A stretch of 64,000 nucleotides of DNA, taken from positions 35,765 to 99,764 of IMG/VR virus record IMGVR_UViG_3300021375_000013; one strand, given 5' to 3'. Position 1 is the stretch's first letter. Each line of letters starts with the position of its first letter. A program made the position numbers and the translations under genes. The notes under the pieces were generated by a model, which was not told where the DNA came from, did not search any database, and saw only the letters and a program-made list of their open reading frames with translations. Positions 22,347-37,208 of this stretch are shown piece by piece. Source of the stretch: a virus.

Positions 22347-23879
22347 ATGAAAATAGTTATAGCGGGTGGAGGAACTGCTGGTTGGTTATCAGCATTATTC
22401 CTAGCCAAACAAAATCTACATAGAGATAAACCAGCATACGATATCACTTTAATAGAAAGTGAAGATATTCCTATAATCGGAGCTGGTGAAGGTTCAACTG
22501 GAGTACTACAAAAAGTACTTTTATCAACACTAACACAATTAGAAGGATTTGGAGAGCAAGAGTTTTTTCAACATTGTAACACTACATTTAAATTAGGAAT
22601 TGATTGTATTGATTGGAATGGAGTAGGTGATAGATTCTTTGAATCGTTATCTGGAACACAAACTTCATTGTGGCCATTGGATAGAGATTTTACTCTTTGT
22701 TCAAAATATGGAGTAGCTGCAGAATCTAGTCCTAACAAATATCTTTGGGAAAAAAATCTAACACCATTTTTAAAAGCTGAAAGTAGTGATAGTTACGAAA
22801 CTGGATATGCTTATCACTTTGATGCACATAAAGTTGGTGAGTGGTTTAAAAAGATTGCATTAGAAAACGGAATCAAACTTCAAATAGGTACAATAACTGA
22901 TACAAATCTAAATCCTAAAAATGGTGAATTACAAAAAGTAATTTTAAAAGATGGAACTGAAATAGAATCTGATTTTTGGATTGATTGTACTGGATTCAAT
23001 AGAGTATTAAGTAATGCAGTTGGAGCAGAGTGGGTTTCATATTCAGAATACTTACCAATCAATTCAGCATTAGTTTACACACATCAATATGAAGAGAATG
23101 AAGAAATACCAAATGTAACAACTGCTTGGGCAATGCCAAATGGTTGGATGTGGCAAATTCCAACTCAAGAAAGATTAGGATGTGGATATTGTTATTCTGA
23201 TAAGTTTGTATCTGAGGAACAAGCTCTGAAAGAACTACAAGAAGTTACTGGTAGAAAGATAACACCTCTTAGAACTATTAAGTTTGATAGTGGTAGGTTA
23301 AACGAAGTTTGGAAAAAGAATGTACTTTCAATAGGATTATCATCTTCCTTCTTAGAACCATTAGAAGCAACATCGATACATTCATCTATAATTCAGTTAG
23401 TACAATTAACACAACATCACTTATCACCTTACAAAGAGGATATGATGAGAGAATCAAACGTCAAAGCAAATAATGAACACTTTAATATGATGTTAGATGA
23501 ATTTAGAGGTTTGATTCAAATGCACTATATTACAAAAAGAAATGATACTCCATTTTGGAAATATGTACACAATGATTTGAAAAGAGACCCATTGGTTGAA
23601 AGTATTTTAGAAGTATGTAAATGGAGAGTTCCCAATGCTAATGATTTTCCACATTACAATGGTTCAGCTGGTTGGGGTGTGTTTAATTGGATATTAGCAG
23701 GTAATGATTTAATTAGTAAAGAGGTATTAGATAAATCCTTACATACTCATAATTTTGAAAAATCATCTGAACAAATTTATAAACATATGGTAAAACAGTA
23801 TACATTTGATAGTAAACAACACTTTCCACATACTGATTTTATCAAATGGACAAAAGATTTCGCAAAAAATCCAAAATAA
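22347..23879 (+). CDS. Flavin-dependent tryptophan halogenase family protein (PrnA-like)
   Basis: GGGTAGW FAD motif, IGAGEGS, catalytic Lys in TFKLGI, YHFDA, IDCTGF, GWMWQIP (WxWxIP), FLEPLEATSI. Confidence 0.9.
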   Translation: MKIVIAGGGTAGWLSALFLAKQNLHRDKPAYDITLIESEDIPIIGAGEGSTGVLQKVLLSTLTQLEGFGEQEFFQHCNTTFKLGIDCIDWNGVGDRFFESLSGTQTSLWPLDRDFTLCSKYGVAAESSPNKYLWEKNLTPFLKAESSDSYETGYAYHFDAHKVGEWFKKIALENGIKLQIGTITDTNLNPKNGELQKVILKDGTEIESDFWIDCTGFNRVLSNAVGAEWVSYSEYLPINSALVYTHQYEENEEIPNVTTAWAMPNGWMWQIPTQERLGCGYCYSDKFVSEEQALKELQEVTGRKITPLRTIKFDSGRLNEVWKKNVLSIGLSSSFLEPLEATSIHSSIIQLVQLTQHHLSPYKEDMMRESNVKANNEHFNMMLDEFRGLIQMHYITKRNDTPFWKYVHNDLKRDPLVESILEVCKWRVPNANDFPHYNGSAGWGVFNWILAGNDLISKEVLDKSLHTHNFEKSSEQIYKHMVKQYTFDSKQHFPHTDFIKWTKDFAKNPK

Positions 23880-27424: not shown

Positions 27425-28783
27425 ATGCAAAATATAGATACTCTTTCCAAATACGGACAATCATTTCAAACAAAGGTTTTATCATCTTTGATTACTGATG
27501 TTCGTTTATTGGATACTCTTAGTGAGATTATACATCCAAAGTTTTTTGAAGCTGAAGCTAATAAATGGATAGCAGAAGAGATTGTTTCTTATTACGATGA
27601 GTTTAAGAAATCTCCAACGTTAGATGTTTTCAAATCAGAGGTTTCAAAGTTAGATGATAGAGGTTTTCAGAAAAGTATAGTGGAGCAACTAAAATCAGTA
27701 TTTACCAAAGTTGGTGATTCTGATTTAGATTATGTAAAGAAAGAGTTTTCTTCTTTTTGTATCAACCAAAACCTAAAACAAGCTATTGTTAGTTCAGTTG
27801 ATTTACTAAAAGCTGGTAACTATGATAGAATCAAAGATTTAGTAGATAAAGCAATGAAGGTAGGAGTGGATTCAGATATGGGACACGATTACCTTTTAGA
27901 TTTTGAAGAAAGAACTAACGAAGTTAATAGAAGTACAGTTCCAACTGGTTGGGATTGTATTAATGAATTGATGGATGGTGGTTTGGGACCTGGCGAATTA
28001 GGAGTAGCAGTAGCACCTTCTGGTGTTGGTAAAACTTGGGTACTATGTGCATTAGGAGCAGCAGCTGTTAAGCAAGGATTAAATGTAGTACATTACTCTT
28101 TAGAATTATCAGAACATTATGTGGGACAGAGATACGATACTGTATTTACACAAATCCCATCTGCAGATGTGAAAGATAAGAAAGAAGTAGTATTAGATAA
28201 AATTGGTAGATTAAGTGGAAAACTTCTTATTAAGTATTTCCCACCAAAAGGTATATCTGCTAAAAAATTAGAATCCCATATTGAAAAGATGACAGCAGCC
28301 GGAAATAAACCTGATTTGATAATTATTGACTATGCTGATTTGTTATTATCTCACACTAATAAATCTGATTCAACTTATGGAGAGCAAGGTGGAGTTTACA
28401 TTGAGTTGAGAGGTATTAGTGGTGAATTGGGTATTCCTATTTGGACAGCATCCCAAACCAATCGTTCAGCAATTGATTCGGAAGTTATTGAGGCTGATAA
28501 GGTAGCAGATTCCTACGCTAAGGTAATGAACGCTGATTTCATTATGAGTATCAGTAGAAAGAGTAAAGATAAATTGAACAATACTGCAAGGTTCCATATT
28601 ATGAAAAACCGATTTGGACCTGATGGAATTACTTTTCCTTCTAAGATGGATACTAACACTGGATTCATTGAGGTTTACGATGGTAACTCTTCAGATGGAA
28701 TCATCACACAAAAAGAATCTGCTAATGGAGAGCAAATGGAAAAGAAATTACTTCATAAAAAATATGTAGAGAATTTTGGATAG
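27425..28783 (+). CDS. Replicative DNA helicase (DnaB / T4 gp41-like)
   Basis: PTGW, GGLGPGEL...APSGVGKT, SLEL, IIDYADLL, WTASQTNR, KNRFGPDG. Confidence 0.95.
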   Translation: MQNIDTLSKYGQSFQTKVLSSLITDVRLLDTLSEIIHPKFFEAEANKWIAEEIVSYYDEFKKSPTLDVFKSEVSKLDDRGFQKSIVEQLKSVFTKVGDSDLDYVKKEFSSFCINQNLKQAIVSSVDLLKAGNYDRIKDLVDKAMKVGVDSDMGHDYLLDFEERTNEVNRSTVPTGWDCINELMDGGLGPGELGVAVAPSGVGKTWVLCALGAAAVKQGLNVVHYSLELSEHYVGQRYDTVFTQIPSADVKDKKEVVLDKIGRLSGKLLIKYFPPKGISAKKLESHIEKMTAAGNKPDLIIIDYADLLLSHTNKSDSTYGEQGGVYIELRGISGELGIPIWTASQTNRSAIDSEVIEADKVADSYAKVMNADFIMSISRKSKDKLNNTARFHIMKNRFGPDGITFPSKMDTNTGFIEVYDGNSSDGIITQKESANGEQMEKKLLHKKYVENFG

Positions 28784-28922
28784 TACTATCAAAATTGGTA
28801 AACTCTATAAAAAATATTTTAACAGTCAATTGAAAAGTTGATTAAAAAATATCAAAAACAAAAAAGTACTAAAAAACGTATTGGAAATATATTTTTTTTC
28901 AATATATACAATAGTTATAAAC

Positions 28923-28952
28923 ACCGAACAACATTCGAGTGTTCGGTTTTTT
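28923..28952 (+). terminator. Stem-loop plus T tract between helicase and the Hc1-like gene
   Basis: ACCGAACA-N9-TGTTCGGT followed by TTTTT. Confidence 0.6.
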
Positions 28953-28982
28953 AATTTAATTAATTTATAAAAAATAAAATTT

Positions 28983-29153
28983 ATGGCAAATTCACAACAA
29001 ATTTTCGAAGAAATCACAGAACTATTTTCTCAGTTTGAAGAAAATCACAACTCATCAACTAAAGCAGGTAAATCAAGAGCTAGAAAAGCAATTGGTGAAA
29101 TCAAAAAATTAGTAACTGATTATAGAAAAGCATCTGTAGAAGAAAATAAGTAA
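28983..29153 (+). CDS. Histone H1-like protein, Hc1 family (not in ORF track)
   Basis: Manual translation, 56 aa: MANSQQIFEEITELFSQFEENHNSSTKAGKSRARKAIGEIKKLVTDYRKASVEENK. The KA..RARK...E..K....(Y/F)RK.SV pattern matches Hc1-like proteins of Chlamydia and Bacteroidota. Confidence 0.75.
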   Translation: MANSQQIFEEITELFSQFEENHNSSTKAGKSRARKAIGEIKKLVTDYRKASVEENK

Positions 29154-29158
29154 TTAGA

Positions 29159-29569
29159 ATGGAAGTTCTTGAGTATCTCAAACATCATGTAAAAACAGAC
29201 ATTGCACCATCTCCTATACATGGAATTGGTACATTTGCACTAACTGATATAAAAGTTGGTGAACCAGTTTTTATGTTATGGCCTAACGAAAGTAGAATTT
29301 ATACTATTGATAGAAATGAGTTTGAAGAACTTCCAAACTATTCAAAAAAAATGATTCTTAAATCATATCTAAACAAACCGGAATATCCTCTTATTTGGTT
29401 TAGATTATTTAAGGATTCTTACTTTAATTTAGCAAATCCGTTAGTTTATACTAACACCGCTGGTGAAGATGGTAACTTTGATTCAATGAAAAGAAAAGCT
29501 ATCAAACCAATTAAAGCAGGGGAAGAAATTTTAGGTAATTATAAATTAGAAGATACACTATTAAAATGA
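29159..29569 (+). CDS. SET-domain protein (putative lysine methyltransferase)
   Basis: SPIHGIGTFALTDIKVGE (motif I), YTNTA in place of NHS, AIKPIKAGEEILGNY (GEE..Y motif). Confidence 0.8.
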   Translation: MEVLEYLKHHVKTDIAPSPIHGIGTFALTDIKVGEPVFMLWPNESRIYTIDRNEFEELPNYSKKMILKSYLNKPEYPLIWFRLFKDSYFNLANPLVYTNTAGEDGNFDSMKRKAIKPIKAGEEILGNYKLEDTLLK

Positions 29570-29877
29570 CATTTGATAAATTAATTGATAACATCACCCA
29601 ATGGGCTGATGATAAAGGAATACTTGTTTCTGATAATATCCCACAACAAACTATGAAAGTTATGGAAGAGTTGGGAGAAACTGCAGGAGCAATTTTAAAA
29701 CATAAAAAGACAGATGAGGTTATCGATGGAATCGGTGATATATTTGTAACAGTTATAATTTTAAGTAAACAATTAGGGTTAGACCCAACCGAATGTTTGG
29801 AATCAGCATGGAATGAAATCAAAGATAGGAAAGGTAAAACAGTAAACGGTACATTTATAAAAGAAGAAGAACTATGA
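29566..29877 (+). CDS. MazG-like nucleotide pyrophosphohydrolase
   Basis: WADDKG, KVMEELGE, DGIGD..V, ECL..AWNEIKDRKG. Confidence 0.85.
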   Translation: MTFDKLIDNITQWADDKGILVSDNIPQQTMKVMEELGETAGAILKHKKTDEVIDGIGDIFVTVIILSKQLGLDPTECLESAWNEIKDRKGKTVNGTFIKEEEL

Positions 29878-31151
29878 GTAACTTTGTAGATACAGCAGCG
29901 GAAAACGTAAGATTCGTAATTAAGAGAAATGGTGAAAAAGTTTCATTTGAATTAAGTAAAATGAAAAGTGCAATTACCAAAGCTATGGAAAGCATCGATA
30001 AGGTAGATGTAGAAATGGTTGAAAAGATTGCAAGAAGTAGTGAAATAACTATTTATAGAAATCCAAATCATATCCCTCATGTAGATGAGATTCACGATAT
30101 AGTGGAAAACAAACTGATGGATAGTGGTTTGAATGATGTAGCAAAAGAATACATCATCTATCGTTCAAAAAATAAACCAAATATCTTTAAGAAAAGAGTA
30201 AATCTTAAACCTTACGAATATCCTCAGTTAGTAGAATACGTTGATGCTATTAGACACTCTTATTGGGTTCATACTGAGTTTAACTTTACATCAGATGTTC
30301 AAGACTTCAAAGTTCACTTGAACGAAAAAGAAAGAACTGCAGTACAAAGAGCTATGTTAGCAATCTCACAAATTGAAATCGCTGTTAAATCATTTTGGGG
30401 AGATATCTACAAAAAAATGCCAAAACCTGAGATTGGAGCAGTTGGTGCAACTTTCGCTGAATCGGAAGTTAGACATGCTGATGCATATTCCAACCTAATT
30501 CAAGTATTAGGATTAAACTCAGAGTTTGAAAATCTTTTACAGGTACCAGGTATTAGAAAAAGAATTAAATATTTAGATAAAACAATGAGTGCAAGTAGGT
30601 CAATTGAAAACAAAGATTACTTTGAATCAGTTGTTTTATTTTCAATGTTTATCGAAAACGTATCGTTGTTCTCACAATTTTTAGTTATTATGTCTTTCAA
30701 CAAATACAAAAATGTATTGAAAGGTACTAGTAATGCAGTTGAGGCAACATCAAAAGAAGAAAAGATTCATGCAGAATTTGGATTTGATTTAGTAAATACA
30801 ATCAAACAAGAAAATCCAACTTGGTGGACTGATGAATTAAAAGAAGATTTAGTTGATGCAACCTTAGATGCTTACGATGCAGAAGCAGATATAGTTGAGT
30901 GGATTTTTGAAGAAGGTGATTTGGATTTCCTTACCAAAGAACAAACTTTAGAATTTATTAAACATAGATTCAACGAATCATTAAACGCTATTGGTATTGA
31001 TAGTGTATTTAGTGTAGATGAAAAATCATTAGAAACTACTGAGTGGTTCGATGATGAGATTCTAACTACAAAACATACTGATTTCTTCAATAAGAGAAGT
31101 ATTAATTATAGTAAAAAACAAAAGTCAATCACAGAAGATGACTTATTTTAA
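29874..31151 (+). CDS. nrdB: Ribonucleotide reductase beta subunit with N-terminal ATP-cone
   Basis: VIKRNG.K..F...K...AI ATP-cone; KPYEYP, W.H.E, QIEIAVK, ESEVRHADAY, FIENVSLFSQF, KEEKIH, DFF..R...Y. Confidence 0.92.
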   Translation: MSNFVDTAAENVRFVIKRNGEKVSFELSKMKSAITKAMESIDKVDVEMVEKIARSSEITIYRNPNHIPHVDEIHDIVENKLMDSGLNDVAKEYIIYRSKNKPNIFKKRVNLKPYEYPQLVEYVDAIRHSYWVHTEFNFTSDVQDFKVHLNEKERTAVQRAMLAISQIEIAVKSFWGDIYKKMPKPEIGAVGATFAESEVRHADAYSNLIQVLGLNSEFENLLQVPGIRKRIKYLDKTMSASRSIENKDYFESVVLFSMFIENVSLFSQFLVIMSFNKYKNVLKGTSNAVEATSKEEKIHAEFGFDLVNTIKQENPTWWTDELKEDLVDATLDAYDAEADIVEWIFEEGDLDFLTKEQTLEFIKHRFNESLNAIGIDSVFSVDEKSLETTEWFDDEILTTKHTDFFNKRSINYSKKQKSITEDDLF

Positions 31152-31168
31152 AAAGTTATAGATAAATT

Positions 31169-32875
31169 ATGAACGATAGAAAACCCTTTGAGTGGATTAA
31201 TGAAGAATCCATCACCTTTCTTAGAAGAGGATATCTAAGTGAAGGAGAAGAACCCTTAGAAAGAATTAGAATCATTGCAGACCATGCTGAGAAATTATTA
31301 GGAATCGAAGGGTTTGCTGATAAGTTTTATGGATATATGAGTAAAGGATGGTATTCATTATCATCACCAGTATGGGCAAATTTTGGTAAACAAAGAGGAT
31401 TACCTGTAAGTTGTTTTGGTTCAAATATTGGAGATAATATTGAATCAATTCTTTTTACACAAGCTGAAGTTGGTGAGATGAGTAAAATGGGAGGTGGTAC
31501 TTCTGGTTACTTTGGAAACCTAAGAGGTAGAGGAGCACCAATTACTGATAATGGTCATGCACCAGGCGCTGTTCACTTTATGAACTTATTTCAAAGTGTA
31601 GTAGATAATATTTCTCAAGGTTCAACTCGAAGAGGTAGATTCTCACCTTACTTACCAATTGAACATCCAGATATTATGGAGTTCTTAGAAATTGGAACTG
31701 AAGGAGCATCGATTCAAGACTTAACACATGCAGTAACTGTTACTGACCAATTTATGGAAGAAATGATTGGTGGTGATAAAAAGAAAAGAGCTGCTTGGGC
31801 AAAAGTAATTCAAAGAAGAGGAGAAATCGGATATCCTTATATTATGTTCCACGATACTATGAACAAAAACACTGTTGATGTTTATAAAGAAAAAGGAGCA
31901 AAAATCTATAACTCAAATCTATGTTCAGAAATTGCTCTTCATAACTCAGAAGAAGAATCATTTGTATGTGTACTTTCATCTATGAACGTATTACATTATG
32001 ATGAATGGAAGGATACTGATGCAGTAGAAACTCTAACTTATTTCTTAGATGCAGTTGTAACTGAATTTTGTACTAAAATAGAAGCATATAGAGATAATGG
32101 TACTATTGAAGGTAAGAGAGCATTTATGTATATGGAAAAAGCTTACAACTTCGCTAAAAGACAAAGAGCATTAGGTTTAGGTGTTTTGGGATGGCATTCA
32201 CTTTTACAATCTAAAGGATTGGCATTCGATACTAAAGATAGTGCAAAATTAAATGTTGAAGTATTCAAACTAATCAAAGATAAATCATATAAAGCATCCG
32301 AAGAGATGGCACAAAAATATGGTGAACCTGAATACTTAGTTGGATATGGTAGAAGAAACGTTACTCTTAATGCAGTAGCACCAACCACATCTTCGGCATT
32401 TATTTTAGGACAAGTTTCACAATCAATTGAACCTATTTGGTCAAATTGTTATGTGAAGGATGTTGCCAAAATGAAGGTAACTATTATGAATCCAATCCTT
32501 AAAAAATTACTTATTGAATTAGGTAAAGATACTAAGGCAACTTGGAATAGTATTAAAAAAGCAGATGGTTCAGTACAACATTTGGAATTCTTAACTGATG
32601 AACAAAAAGATGTATTCAGAACATTTGCAGAAATCAATCAATCATCTATTATTAATCAAGCAGCAATCAGACAAGATTTCATTGACCAATCACAATCATT
32701 GAATATAATGGTTTCACCTGATATGCCAACTAAGACTATTAATAAATTATTGATTGATGCATGGAAGTTAGGAGTTAAAACTCTTTACTACCAACATTCG
32801 ATGAATTCAGCACAAGCGTTTGCTAGAAAGAAATTAAATCTTAATGATTTAGCATGTGTAGCTTGTGAAGGTTAA
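31169..32875 (+). CDS. nrdA: Ribonucleotide reductase alpha subunit (class I, no ATP-cone)
   Basis: LPVSCF, GGGTS, SNLCSEI, VCVLSS, LGLGVLG, APTTSS, IDQSQS, GVKTLYY, C-terminal CVACEG. Confidence 0.95.
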   Translation: MNDRKPFEWINEESITFLRRGYLSEGEEPLERIRIIADHAEKLLGIEGFADKFYGYMSKGWYSLSSPVWANFGKQRGLPVSCFGSNIGDNIESILFTQAEVGEMSKMGGGTSGYFGNLRGRGAPITDNGHAPGAVHFMNLFQSVVDNISQGSTRRGRFSPYLPIEHPDIMEFLEIGTEGASIQDLTHAVTVTDQFMEEMIGGDKKKRAAWAKVIQRRGEIGYPYIMFHDTMNKNTVDVYKEKGAKIYNSNLCSEIALHNSEEESFVCVLSSMNVLHYDEWKDTDAVETLTYFLDAVVTEFCTKIEAYRDNGTIEGKRAFMYMEKAYNFAKRQRALGLGVLGWHSLLQSKGLAFDTKDSAKLNVEVFKLIKDKSYKASEEMAQKYGEPEYLVGYGRRNVTLNAVAPTTSSAFILGQVSQSIEPIWSNCYVKDVAKMKVTIMNPILKKLLIELGKDTKATWNSIKKADGSVQHLEFLTDEQKDVFRTFAEINQSSIINQAAIRQDFIDQSQSLNIMVSPDMPTKTINKLLIDAWKLGVKTLYYQHSMNSAQAFARKKLNLNDLACVACEG

Positions 32876-35228: not shown

Positions 35229-37208
35229 ATGGAAATTTCAAATTTTAAGGTTGCTAGGTTTAAGGCAACGGCAGAAACCAAAAATGAGTTGATAGATGTT
35301 ATTAAAAAATATCAACCAAAAGTGAGTAAGTTATTGAAAGATGAACAAATCGGAAAACTCACAATTCACACATCAAGAAAAAATTTATTACAAAATTATC
35401 AACTAAATGAACATGATTCCAAAGATTTAATGGAAGAATATTCTTTGGTTGATTATGGTGGAACACAATTCAGAAATCATATAATTAATCGTTATATGAA
35501 TGAATCTGATTCTGGATTAAGAACGCAAGCTAGATTGGTAATCGAAGGTATTATGGGAGTTTGTGTTATTGATTATATTCCATTTGGTTGGTCAAATGGT
35601 GATTCTTTGGAAATTGGTTCTACTGATAAAGGTAACTTCCTTAGAGGACATACAATGATTTTCTCTAATGAAGTACAACCATCTCAATTACAAACTAAAA
35701 TACCAACTTTAAGATTTACAAAAAGTAAACTTACACAAATTATAGATTCATCAGCTGCATTGAGTACTCCTCAGTTATCGAATTTACGAAGAGAGTTTCA
35801 AAGTAAGTTGGATGATAAGTTTCAATATACTATTAGAGAAGCATTTGATACAATTGGTAGAGGCGATTTAGTAGATGATTATTTAAATTCTGAATGTACT
35901 TTAAATATTGTTATTGGTGATGATGATGTTATCATCAAAGAAATGATTGATACAAACAATATCTTTAACCTTTGGGAATCTGTTGTATATGCATATTGTT
36001 CTATTTCTAAAGATAGTAAAGAAACTGATTTGGGTAATGTGTTATCCGATATATTTTCAGAAAACAATAAATCATATACGGATTTCTTAGAGAAAAAATA
36101 TCTATCAAAAATAAAAAAGAAATTATCTTCTTGTAAAGAGTATTATCTATTACCTGTACTTTTATTAGAGGGATATAAAAACGGATTCGGAAGAATAAAT
36201 TCAGATACAAAAAATAAAATTAAATTTTTAGAATTGTGTGAAAAATATGCAGATGTTAACTCCAAAAATTGGATGCAATCACCGATAGTTGATTTTACAT
36301 CAAAGTATATTTCTAAAACTCCTTCTTTAAATTTTGATGATTCCATTAAGTTTATTGGTTTGTTGGGTGATAGAAGTATAACTAAAGAATTCGATGAGTT
36401 TACTAAAGTTGTTCAAAGTTTAGAAACAGCAATAGATAAGCACATTGATGTTGATGAGATAAACAAAGATGGTTATAAGAAAAATGATTTAAGTAAATTT
36501 AGATTTACTGGTTCTGCTGCATCTGAAGAAACTTTGTTGTATTTCTTTTCTAAGATATATTATAAGTTATCTAAGAAACAAAGTTTTCACACCAAACATA
36601 TAACCTTTATTTTGAGTAGACTGAGAAAAACATTAGAATCATCATTCGAAACGAAAAAAGATGGTAGATTATTCCTTACAGAATCATCGATAAAGGATGG
36701 TTTGAAAAAGGCAATTACAAATGCTGGTTACAAATATAGAATTGAACTTAGTGATAGTTTATTCGAATCGGCATTTAGTGATTATGATAATGAGTATGGT
36801 TCTAAGAGTAAAAATGCTGAATTTAAAAGAAAAGAAGTAGAACTTTTAACTAAATTATGGGAAGAGGCTAAAATTAAAAATACACCAATTCCATTTGTAG
36901 TTCCAACTGGTAAACTAAATGATGAGGAGTTTCTACACTTTGATGATATTAGAGATAATTCATTTTCTATGGATTGGTCTCATATTGAATCTGGTGTTGA
37001 TAAATTTGAAAATGGTTACTTATGGGGTGATATCCAAAGAGGAGTTGGAGCTAGTTCTCAGTACCTATATGATTCCAAATTAGATGCATATACTACAATG
37101 GTAGATGTTATGGAAGATTCTAAATTGAATCCTGCTGGTGTGGTACTTTGGAAAATGGTTTTAGATTATTGGAAAGCTAACTATAAAGCAGATTTAACTG
37201 ATTTTTAA
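35229..37208 (+). CDS. Hypothetical 659 aa protein; faint ParB/DUF262-like N-terminus and HNH-like C-terminus
   Basis: Long ORF with its own promoter. Only weak resemblance: TQFR...STDKGNFLR and DWSHI...ENG. Confidence 0.3.
   Translation: MEISNFKVARFKATAETKNELIDVIKKYQPKVSKLLKDEQIGKLTIHTSRKNLLQNYQLNEHDSKDLMEEYSLVDYGGTQFRNHIINRYMNESDSGLRTQARLVIEGIMGVCVIDYIPFGWSNGDSLEIGSTDKGNFLRGHTMIFSNEVQPSQLQTKIPTLRFTKSKLTQIIDSSAALSTPQLSNLRREFQSKLDDKFQYTIREAFDTIGRGDLVDDYLNSECTLNIVIGDDDVIIKEMIDTNNIFNLWESVVYAYCSISKDSKETDLGNVLSDIFSENNKSYTDFLEKKYLSKIKKKLSSCKEYYLLPVLLLEGYKNGFGRINSDTKNKIKFLELCEKYADVNSKNWMQSPIVDFTSKYISKTPSLNFDDSIKFIGLLGDRSITKEFDEFTKVVQSLETAIDKHIDVDEINKDGYKKNDLSKFRFTGSAASEETLLYFFSKIYYKLSKKQSFHTKHITFILSRLRKTLESSFETKKDGRLFLTESSIKDGLKKAITNAGYKYRIELSDSLFESAFSDYDNEYGSKSKNAEFKRKEVELLTKLWEEAKIKNTPIPFVVPTGKLNDEEFLHFDDIRDNSFSMDWSHIESGVDKFENGYLWGDIQRGVGASSQYLYDSKLDAYTTMVDVMEDSKLNPAGVVLWKMVLDYWKANYKADLTDF

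Follow-up and report, generated by a model that had tools for sequence, protein, structure and literature searches.

In a 64,000-nucleotide stretch of viral DNA (hereafter the window; positions 35,765 to 99,764 of the IMG/VR virus record IMGVR_UViG_3300021375_000013, which is 99.8 kb long and estimated by CheckV to be 53% complete), a gene for a 56-amino-acid (aa) protein of the Hc1 family lies directly upstream of a gene for a 136-aa SET-domain protein. We consider these to be two real but separable genes, with a probability of roughly 0.6: a core gene encoding a tail-less Hc1 module and an accessory gene encoding a minimal SET methyltransferase, whose adjacency is local. Each is a variant of a known family, Hc1 without its tail in one case, and SET without the histidine of the NH motif and without the post-SET region in the other. 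An original prediction, made from the letters of the window, had proposed that they form a chromatin writer-substrate pair in which the SET enzyme modifies a DNA-compacting protein. Taken as a whole, this interpretation is partly supported: the families and the chlamydial precedent were rightly named, the compaction label is unsupported, and gene linkage argues against the pairing.

Linkage of the Hc1 and SET genes

Across a large clade of big aquatic phages, the Hc1 gene belongs to the core and is fixed directly 3' of the replicative helicase gene; this helicase-Hc1 synteny was found in all loci showing both genes. The place of the SET gene varies. We surveyed 58 Hc1 loci in which the whole cassette is visible up to nrdA, and found the following gene orders:

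Hc1-SET-MazG-nrdB-nrdA, 17 of 58 loci
Hc1-nrdB-SET-MazG-nrdA, 5 of 58 loci
Hc1-nrdB-SET-nrdA, 3 of 58 loci
Hc1-nrdB-MazG-SET-nrdA, 1 of 58 loci
No SET, 32 of 58 loci

The nrdB gene separates SET from Hc1 in nine of these 58 cassettes. MazG is the most constant neighbor of SET in the clade: 22 of the 26 SET-bearing cassettes keep the two side by side, among them ones in which nrdB separates SET from Hc1. In two larger relatives (G004 and G005, helicase 71-72% identical), the helicase-Hc1 synteny is intact and SET lies approximately 80 kb away. The conserved adjacency on which a pair would rest was thus seen in the close relatives with the first gene order, and not in the split, SET-less, or distant arrangements; loss of adjacency in relatives, which the original prediction had itself named as speaking against a pair, is largely what we observed. 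Phages with and without SET do not differ in their Hc1 sequences, with each of the seven lysines in helix 2 and tail unchanged and one identical Hc1 protein occurring in both, and a search for covariation of SET presence with Hc1 residues gave none. Because adjacency is lost in relatives and Hc1 is the same whether or not SET is present, gene linkage does not support pairing.

Further afield, G001 and G010 (helicase 48% identical) possess a SET that is 60% identical and fused to DUF6065, between polB and ligase. In other lineages, SET is found after a Trp halogenase gene (with overlapping stop and start codons), after a gene for a cytidylyltransferase-RraA protein, or as tandem pairs. No Hc1 gene was detected within 10 kb of approximately 25 SET loci outside the clade, even with a broadened hidden Markov model that recovered the cellular type. 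Hc1 was also not found in the SET-bearing fragments G001, G002, G006-G010 (25-55% complete), G279-G281, and G283, which as fragments cannot show absence. The complete phages immuto and LR745206 contain Hc1 and no SET, and a 90%-complete record of 32 kb contains SET and no Hc1. Co-occurrence of both families in all three of the 79-100% complete records G003-G005 was considered as independent support for a pair and rejected for two of the three, since G004 and G005 are both members of the same helicase-Hc1 clade.

The cassette that harbors SET in the window's subclade is mosaic. With a helicase that is 72-92% identical, nrdA and nrdB are in many loci only 32-38% identical, as opposed to 80-99% in other loci; MazG presence or absence is independent of this swap, and synonymous divergence (dS) is higher in SET than in its flanking genes. 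The SET gene is accessory and movable, occupying variable slots in the nucleotide-metabolism cassette or elsewhere, and its adjacency to Hc1 is a local arrangement, not a conserved two-gene module. Separately, we noted that the nrd cassette (29874-32875 in the window; same slot in L018-L027 and L045-L107) has been swapped between close relatives.

We also sampled 201 genomes of Bacteroidota (G017, G079-G278), the presumed host phylum. Hc1 (PF07432) is present in 122 of them, bearing out the statement that short Hc1-like proteins occur in this phylum, and SET in 98. Both are present in 35 genomes vs. 59.5 expected (odds ratio 0.10, Fisher p 1e-12), a test that is confounded by phylogeny and in which the SETs are of another subfamily, the canonical one. 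In these genomes at least 14 kb always lies between the two, and the Bacteroidota data give no support for a general SET-Hc1 partnership. No functional characterization of either family is apparent in Bacteroidota. SET was not found in three named Neomarinimicrobiota, a Flavobacteriales metagenome-assembled genome (MAG), or a Muiribacterium MAG, incomplete assemblies that hence give no evidence of absence.

The Hc1-like protein

The 56-aa open reading frame (ORF) matches the Pfam Hc1 model (PF07432) with 36.7 bits (cut-off 23.5; E 3.8e-9) over profile positions 2-56 of 57, in line with the predicted family, and scores 35.6 bits in a profile search of the whole record. The stretch TKAGKSRARKA...YRKASV, quoted in the original prediction, is found in it. 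We retrieved 663 close homologs of 55-90 aa, all with PF07432 and many from Tara or other marine data, as well as 417 related stretches in IMG/VR. The ratio of non-synonymous to synonymous divergence (dN/dS) is 0.05-0.27, indicating purifying selection. Searches of PHROGs and NCBIfam returned nothing meaningful for the Hc1-like or the SET protein.

The AlphaFold2 (AF2) model of the protein (predicted local distance difference test, pLDDT, 94.1) is a two-helix hairpin with helices at residues 4-21 and 27-55. Helix 1 is acidic (net charge -5) and helix 2, which is invariant among relatives, is basic (net +6), so that the whole protein has a net charge of +1 and an isoelectric point (pI) of 8.1; across the phage form of Hc1 the net charge is 0 to +1. 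A Foldseek search gave no significant fold match in the PDB, only generic helical hairpins (best E 0.63), and this lack of a specific match is as expected for a generic hairpin.

In the chlamydial Hc1, the conserved N-terminus is responsible for dimerization and a C-terminus rich in lysine for DNA binding (PMC2848022). The phage protein stops at residue 56 and has no lysine-rich C-terminal tail. K/A-rich tails are likewise missing from the longer database homologs, whose additional sequence consists of N-terminal extensions or a membrane anchor. As judged from sequence, the 56-aa protein and the 57-position Pfam model would correspond only to the conserved N-terminal module of chlamydial Hc1. 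Because only this module is present, with no tail and a near-neutral charge, the protein does not have the features of a histone H1-like DNA condenser, and the proposal of a DNA-compacting protein is not supported. For the same reason, calling these phage and FCB-group proteins "histone H1-like" is misleading: the non-DNA-binding module alone is present.

Among 185,579 species genomes searched, the closest cellular homologs are 58-aa proteins from MAGs and one single-cell genome of Candidatus Neomarinimicrobiota (SAR406; L189-L206), whose helix 2 is identical to that of the phage over SRARKAIGE[IV]KKLVTDYRKASV. In the one locus examined (L197:3001-3174), the gene sits between a metalloprotease sorted by the type IX secretion system and TypA/BipA, a genuine cellular context. 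The family is patchy in Neomarinimicrobiota (4 of 61 genomes). The identity of helix 2 is also a possible clue to the host, against which the Bacteroidota-type promoters of the window have to be set. Among phages, PF07432 proteins are also found in Flavobacterium phage immuto and megaphage LR745206, and weakly in Lak phages.

The SET protein

The 136-aa protein passes the Pfam SET model (PF00856) marginally (23.1 bits, cut-off 22.4, E 1e-4), while more distant members of the same phage family reach 37-40 bits. Its predicted fold independently agrees with the family that had been proposed: the AF2 model (pLDDT 93.4) matches vSET, MLL1, and SETD8 with a Foldseek probability of 1.0, and in VIA-align it gives Z scores of 9.5-9.8, with all of the top 50 entries listed being SET-domain proteins. 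The match to vSET has a Z score of 9.5 and a root-mean-square deviation of 1.7 A over 65 residues, with 32% identity. Sequence similarity to solved SETs is limited to the N-terminal motif.

We aligned 25 homologs, down to 37% identity, and found G22, G24, N99, N106, G121, E123, and Y128 to be invariant. The GxG motif that binds S-adenosylmethionine (SAM) is kept as H-G-I-G-T-F-A with G22 and G24, and aligns to SPIHGRGLF of MLL1. The C-terminal acidic motif with its tyrosine is also kept, as G-E-E-I-L-G-N-Y (ELxxxY type). The NH motif reads Y97-T98-N99-T100-A101, the NTA already noticed in the original prediction: the position of the histidine is occupied by T, S, or A in all 25. No post-SET cysteine cluster is present. 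Relative to its relatives, the gene has a dN/dS of 0.12-0.27, again indicating purifying selection. These features make the product probably an active, vSET-like minimal lysine methyltransferase.

The family is small, with 93 representatives at E < 1e-3 among 1.84 billion proteins, and the loci open to examination are viral contigs. A divergent, phage-restricted minimal SET family exists. Some of its members have unusual architectures. A 420-aa DUF6065-SET fusion (L155:9149-10411) is encoded between DNA polymerase B and DNA ligase, and a 328-aa protein joins a class-I methyltransferase to SET (P0237); for DUF6065 the resources searched yielded neither a paper nor a solved relative. Tandem SET genes (157 and 144 aa) are present in one jumbo-phage lineage (L165-L167 and L174; approximately 10001-10908 in L167), and two separate SET genes in G005. 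In two related jumbo-phage records, SET starts on the stop codon of a Trp halogenase gene (L171:8448-10414; L177:8469-10414). The window also encodes a Trp halogenase, at 22347-23879, approximately 5 kb 5' of its SET gene.

Organization of the locus and upstream signals

The locus comprises the following features, all on the plus strand:

27425-28783, DnaB-like replicative helicase, the constant upstream neighbor of the Hc1 gene
28892-28925, conserved upstream box with a T-run, AATATATAC, AATAGTTATA, and AACACC, promoter-like
28923-28947, hairpin with stem ACCGAACA / TGTTCGGT and a 9-nucleotide (nt) loop, then T6, recognized by fold energy and compensatory changes
28983-29153, Hc1-family gene, 56 aa (Pfam PF07432, 36.7 bits)
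29159-29569, minimal SET-fold gene, 136 aa (Pfam SET, 23.1 bits; AF2 fold)
29566-29877, MazG-like pyrophosphatase (PHROG MazG matches, E 3e-35)

The coordinates of the 56-aa ORF and the 5-nt spacer between it and SET (29154-29158) are as originally claimed. The SET stop codon overlaps the MazG start at 29566 (ATGA). A FEN-type exonuclease and the DnaB-like helicase are the 5' neighbors of the two genes, with nrdB and nrdA on the 3' side, which places Hc1 in the replication and nucleotide-metabolism block of the window and not in the virion block.

Upstream of Hc1, a variant of a late motif had been reported at 28911. The 9-mer ATAGTTATA is indeed present at 28911-28919, but it is not enriched in the window (50 matches vs. 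54.7 expected, with one mismatch allowed), and for this reason we did not accept it, taken alone, as pointing to a motif class. The surrounding 34-nt box is nearly invariant across 11 relatives whose intergenic flanks have otherwise diverged, and the window has no second copy of this box even with up to 3 mismatches allowed. Two other classes of upstream motifs can be recognized: a host-type motif, TTTG...TATATTTG, before replication genes (16345, 27425, 41935, 45644, 54393), and a late-type motif, ATATTTATAG, before structural and late genes (4566, 5092, 17656, 19893, 24110, 60460). The Hc1 box resembles the late-type motif at 8 of 11 positions, but differs at a conserved T and has extra conserved flanks. 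As read from its sequence, it is distinct from both classes and a third kind of signal.

The hairpin that follows has a fold energy of -11.6 kcal/mol (z -2.1). Relatives keep a stem at the same site by compensatory changes (CCAAC/GTTGG, CCAC/GTGG, GACC/GGTC), while the T-run is mostly lost, and the hairpin was not picked up by a terminator scan. Rather than a conserved terminator, it is probably a stem-loop in the 5' leader, and box and hairpin together may form a dedicated promoter and leader of the Hc1 transcript.

Contigs from RNA libraries span Hc1 into SET and SET into MazG, which fits one transcript, with DNA carry-over also possible. Such carry-over is likely, because one run with a metatranscriptomic label (X2, "algae metagenome") contains a 76-kb contig of an approximately 95%-identical relative that covers the whole of 28300-30300; the longest contig of this run is 173 kb. 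Gaps in the RNA-contig cover around 28923-29078 in another run (X1) were discarded as uninformative. SET is probably co-transcribed with Hc1 here and translationally coupled to MazG. Run X2 is also of note in its own right, as it suggests phage DNA in an RNA library and a near-complete genome of a relative.

Possible functions of the two proteins

We propose that the Hc1-like protein made by the phage may copy, or compete with, a small host protein associated with nucleic acid or the nucleoid. It would act by way of helix 2, probably in dimeric form, rather than as a DNA condenser of the lysine-rich type. SET would have landed in different slots, that of this subclade being the mosaic nrd/MazG cassette beside Hc1. 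By precedent, an Hc1-type protein, either the phage's or the host's, would be the best single candidate for the SET substrate, although it is not favored over all other abundant host and phage proteins combined.

Such another abundant protein (a translation factor, a ribosomal, other nucleoid, or virion protein) is a possible target, and we consider this less likely than not. SET would then be an accessory for host takeover or anti-defence, and its adjacency to Hc1 would reflect an insertion hot spot in the nrd/MazG cassette. This is consistent with a slot that varies within the nrd cassette and beyond it, with the mosaic nature of that cassette (nrdA and nrdB, and the raised dS of SET), with the heterogeneous neighbors and fusions of SET (DUF6065, class-I methyltransferase, Trp halogenase), and with its tandem copies in some lineages. 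Yet no test brought out a candidate substrate, and SET has no consistent neighbor except MazG in this clade.

That the target of SET is instead a lysine in the phage's own Hc1-like protein, such as one in the invariant KSRARKAIGEIKK helix, with methylation tuning the binding of this protein to nucleic acid or to partners, appears unlikely to us. We regard as similarly unlikely a broader form of this idea, in which the target would be a lysine of the basic helix common to phage and host Hc1: the phage would supply a mimic and chemically switch the combined host and phage pool, with SET as an optional upgrade in some members of the clade. A host Hc1-like protein could be modified too, because helix 2 is identical in cellular homologs. 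The 5-nt spacer with a probably shared transcript and the helix 2 common to phage and cellular proteins are in favor of a pair, as are the invariant Tyr, GxG, and Asn of SET (dN/dS approximately 0.15). On the other hand, SET is missing in 32 of the 58 cassettes with Hc1 and its lysines unchanged, lies 80 kb off in G004 and G005, has unrelated neighbors in other lineages with no Hc1 within 10 kb, and is present without Hc1 in the 90%-complete record. The negative association in the 201 Bacteroidota genomes, where the SET subfamily differs, points in the same direction. The candidate lysines are also part of a helix predicted with confidence, while the peptides that SET enzymes accept are extended.

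Several observations weigh against our reading of the two as separable, and some of them also favor a pair. In the window's subclade, the distance from SET to Hc1 is at most approximately 2 kb in every one of the 26 SET-bearing cassettes. G003, an unrelated jumbo record (helicase 25% identical), independently encodes both families, approximately 200 kb apart. The invariant RARKA stretch in helix 2 is similar to the ARKS surroundings of H3K9/K27, and the best structural matches include vSET, which acts on H3K27, although this is a resemblance only. In addition, no functional characterization of short Hc1-like proteins from any organism was found in the literature searched, which leaves their role as host mimics conjectural. 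Finally, the only native prokaryotic SET substrates in a review of the subject are small chromatin proteins, Hc1 and MC1-alpha (PMC3980110). The original prediction had cited methylation of Hc1 by a chlamydial SET protein, and cpnSET of Chlamydia pneumoniae does bind and methylate Hc1; Go1-SET of Methanosarcina mazei methylates MC1-alpha; NUE of C. trachomatis, in contrast, does not methylate Hc1 (PMC3980110).

The SET-fold protein could also be no methyltransferase at all, but a SAM-binding or scaffold protein, since it lacks both the NH-motif histidine and a post-SET region. We consider this improbable. The histidine is indeed replaced in 25 of 25 sequences, the Pfam score is marginal, and the post-SET cysteine cluster is absent, unlike in Bacteroidota SETs; but G22/G24, N99, N106, G121, E123, and Y128 are invariant under purifying selection, vSET, which is active without a post-SET region, is a top structural match, and the NH residues of SET enzymes contact SAM mostly through the backbone. 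A somewhat less remote, though still doubtful, suggestion concerns the Hc1-like protein, which could be a late, abundant DNA-compacting or packaging protein. Packaging has been speculated on for the moraphages (PMC12619734), the box is similar to the late-type motif, and the leader hairpin could stabilize an abundant mRNA. Against this stand the missing lysine-rich tail and the net charge of 0 to +1, the position of the gene outside the virion block, and the departure of the box from true late motifs at the conserved T and in its flanks.

Two separable genes remain our preferred reading. As a highly conserved core gene, Hc1 marks a large and abundant clade of uncultured aquatic phages. Should Hc1-type proteins prove to be substrates of SET, a bacteriophage would be carrying out protein-lysine "chromatin" writing, an analog of histone-tail writing, and there would be a first way into the function of the short Hc1-like proteins carried by so many of the Bacteroidota genomes sampled.

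Comparison with known systems

The short Hc1-like proteins of the FCB group (Bacteroidota; Neomarinimicrobiota) are similar to the phage protein in length class (56-62 aa) and in their two-helix plan, but the helix 1 of the phage protein is more acidic (-5 vs. -1 to -2) and its pI lower (8.1 vs. 9.3-9.7). Phage-encoded PF07432 proteins were already reported in the "moraphages" in 2025 (PMC12619734). These and other large Bacteroidota phages, from aquatic or gut settings, are like the window in encoding this family, but the moraphage paper reports no SET (PMC12619734). The immuto and LR745206 proteins are 56-62% identical to that of the window, and the immuto gene follows GroEL, not a helicase. 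The chlamydial Hc1 (HctA, PF07432) has in common with the phage protein a helical module with a K-x-A-x-x-R-x-R-K segment; it is a two-domain protein with a lysine-rich DNA-binding C-terminus, whereas the phage protein has nothing beyond the N-terminal module and is close to neutral (PMC2848022 for the chlamydial protein).

The phage SET shares with vSET (PBCV-1 A612L, an H3K27 methyltransferase) that it is virus-encoded, stand-alone, approximately 120-136 aa long, and without a post-SET region. However, vSET belongs to a eukaryotic virus and acts on a histone, the phage family has no NH histidine, and sequence similarity between the two is weak (PDB profile E 0.11). The canonical small SETs found in 98 of the 201 Bacteroidota genomes are likewise stand-alone proteins, of 130-200 aa, but they possess NHSC..PNC and a post-SET cysteine cluster, share 24-27% identity with the phage SET, and reach 50-93 bits in Pfam, where the phage SET has 23. 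In cpnSET-Hc1 and Go1-SET-MC1-alpha, the methylated substrate is a small chromatin protein encoded in the same genome as the prokaryotic SET enzyme, and these systems are the precedent for the putative pair; the linkage of the phage SET and Hc1 genes is not conserved.

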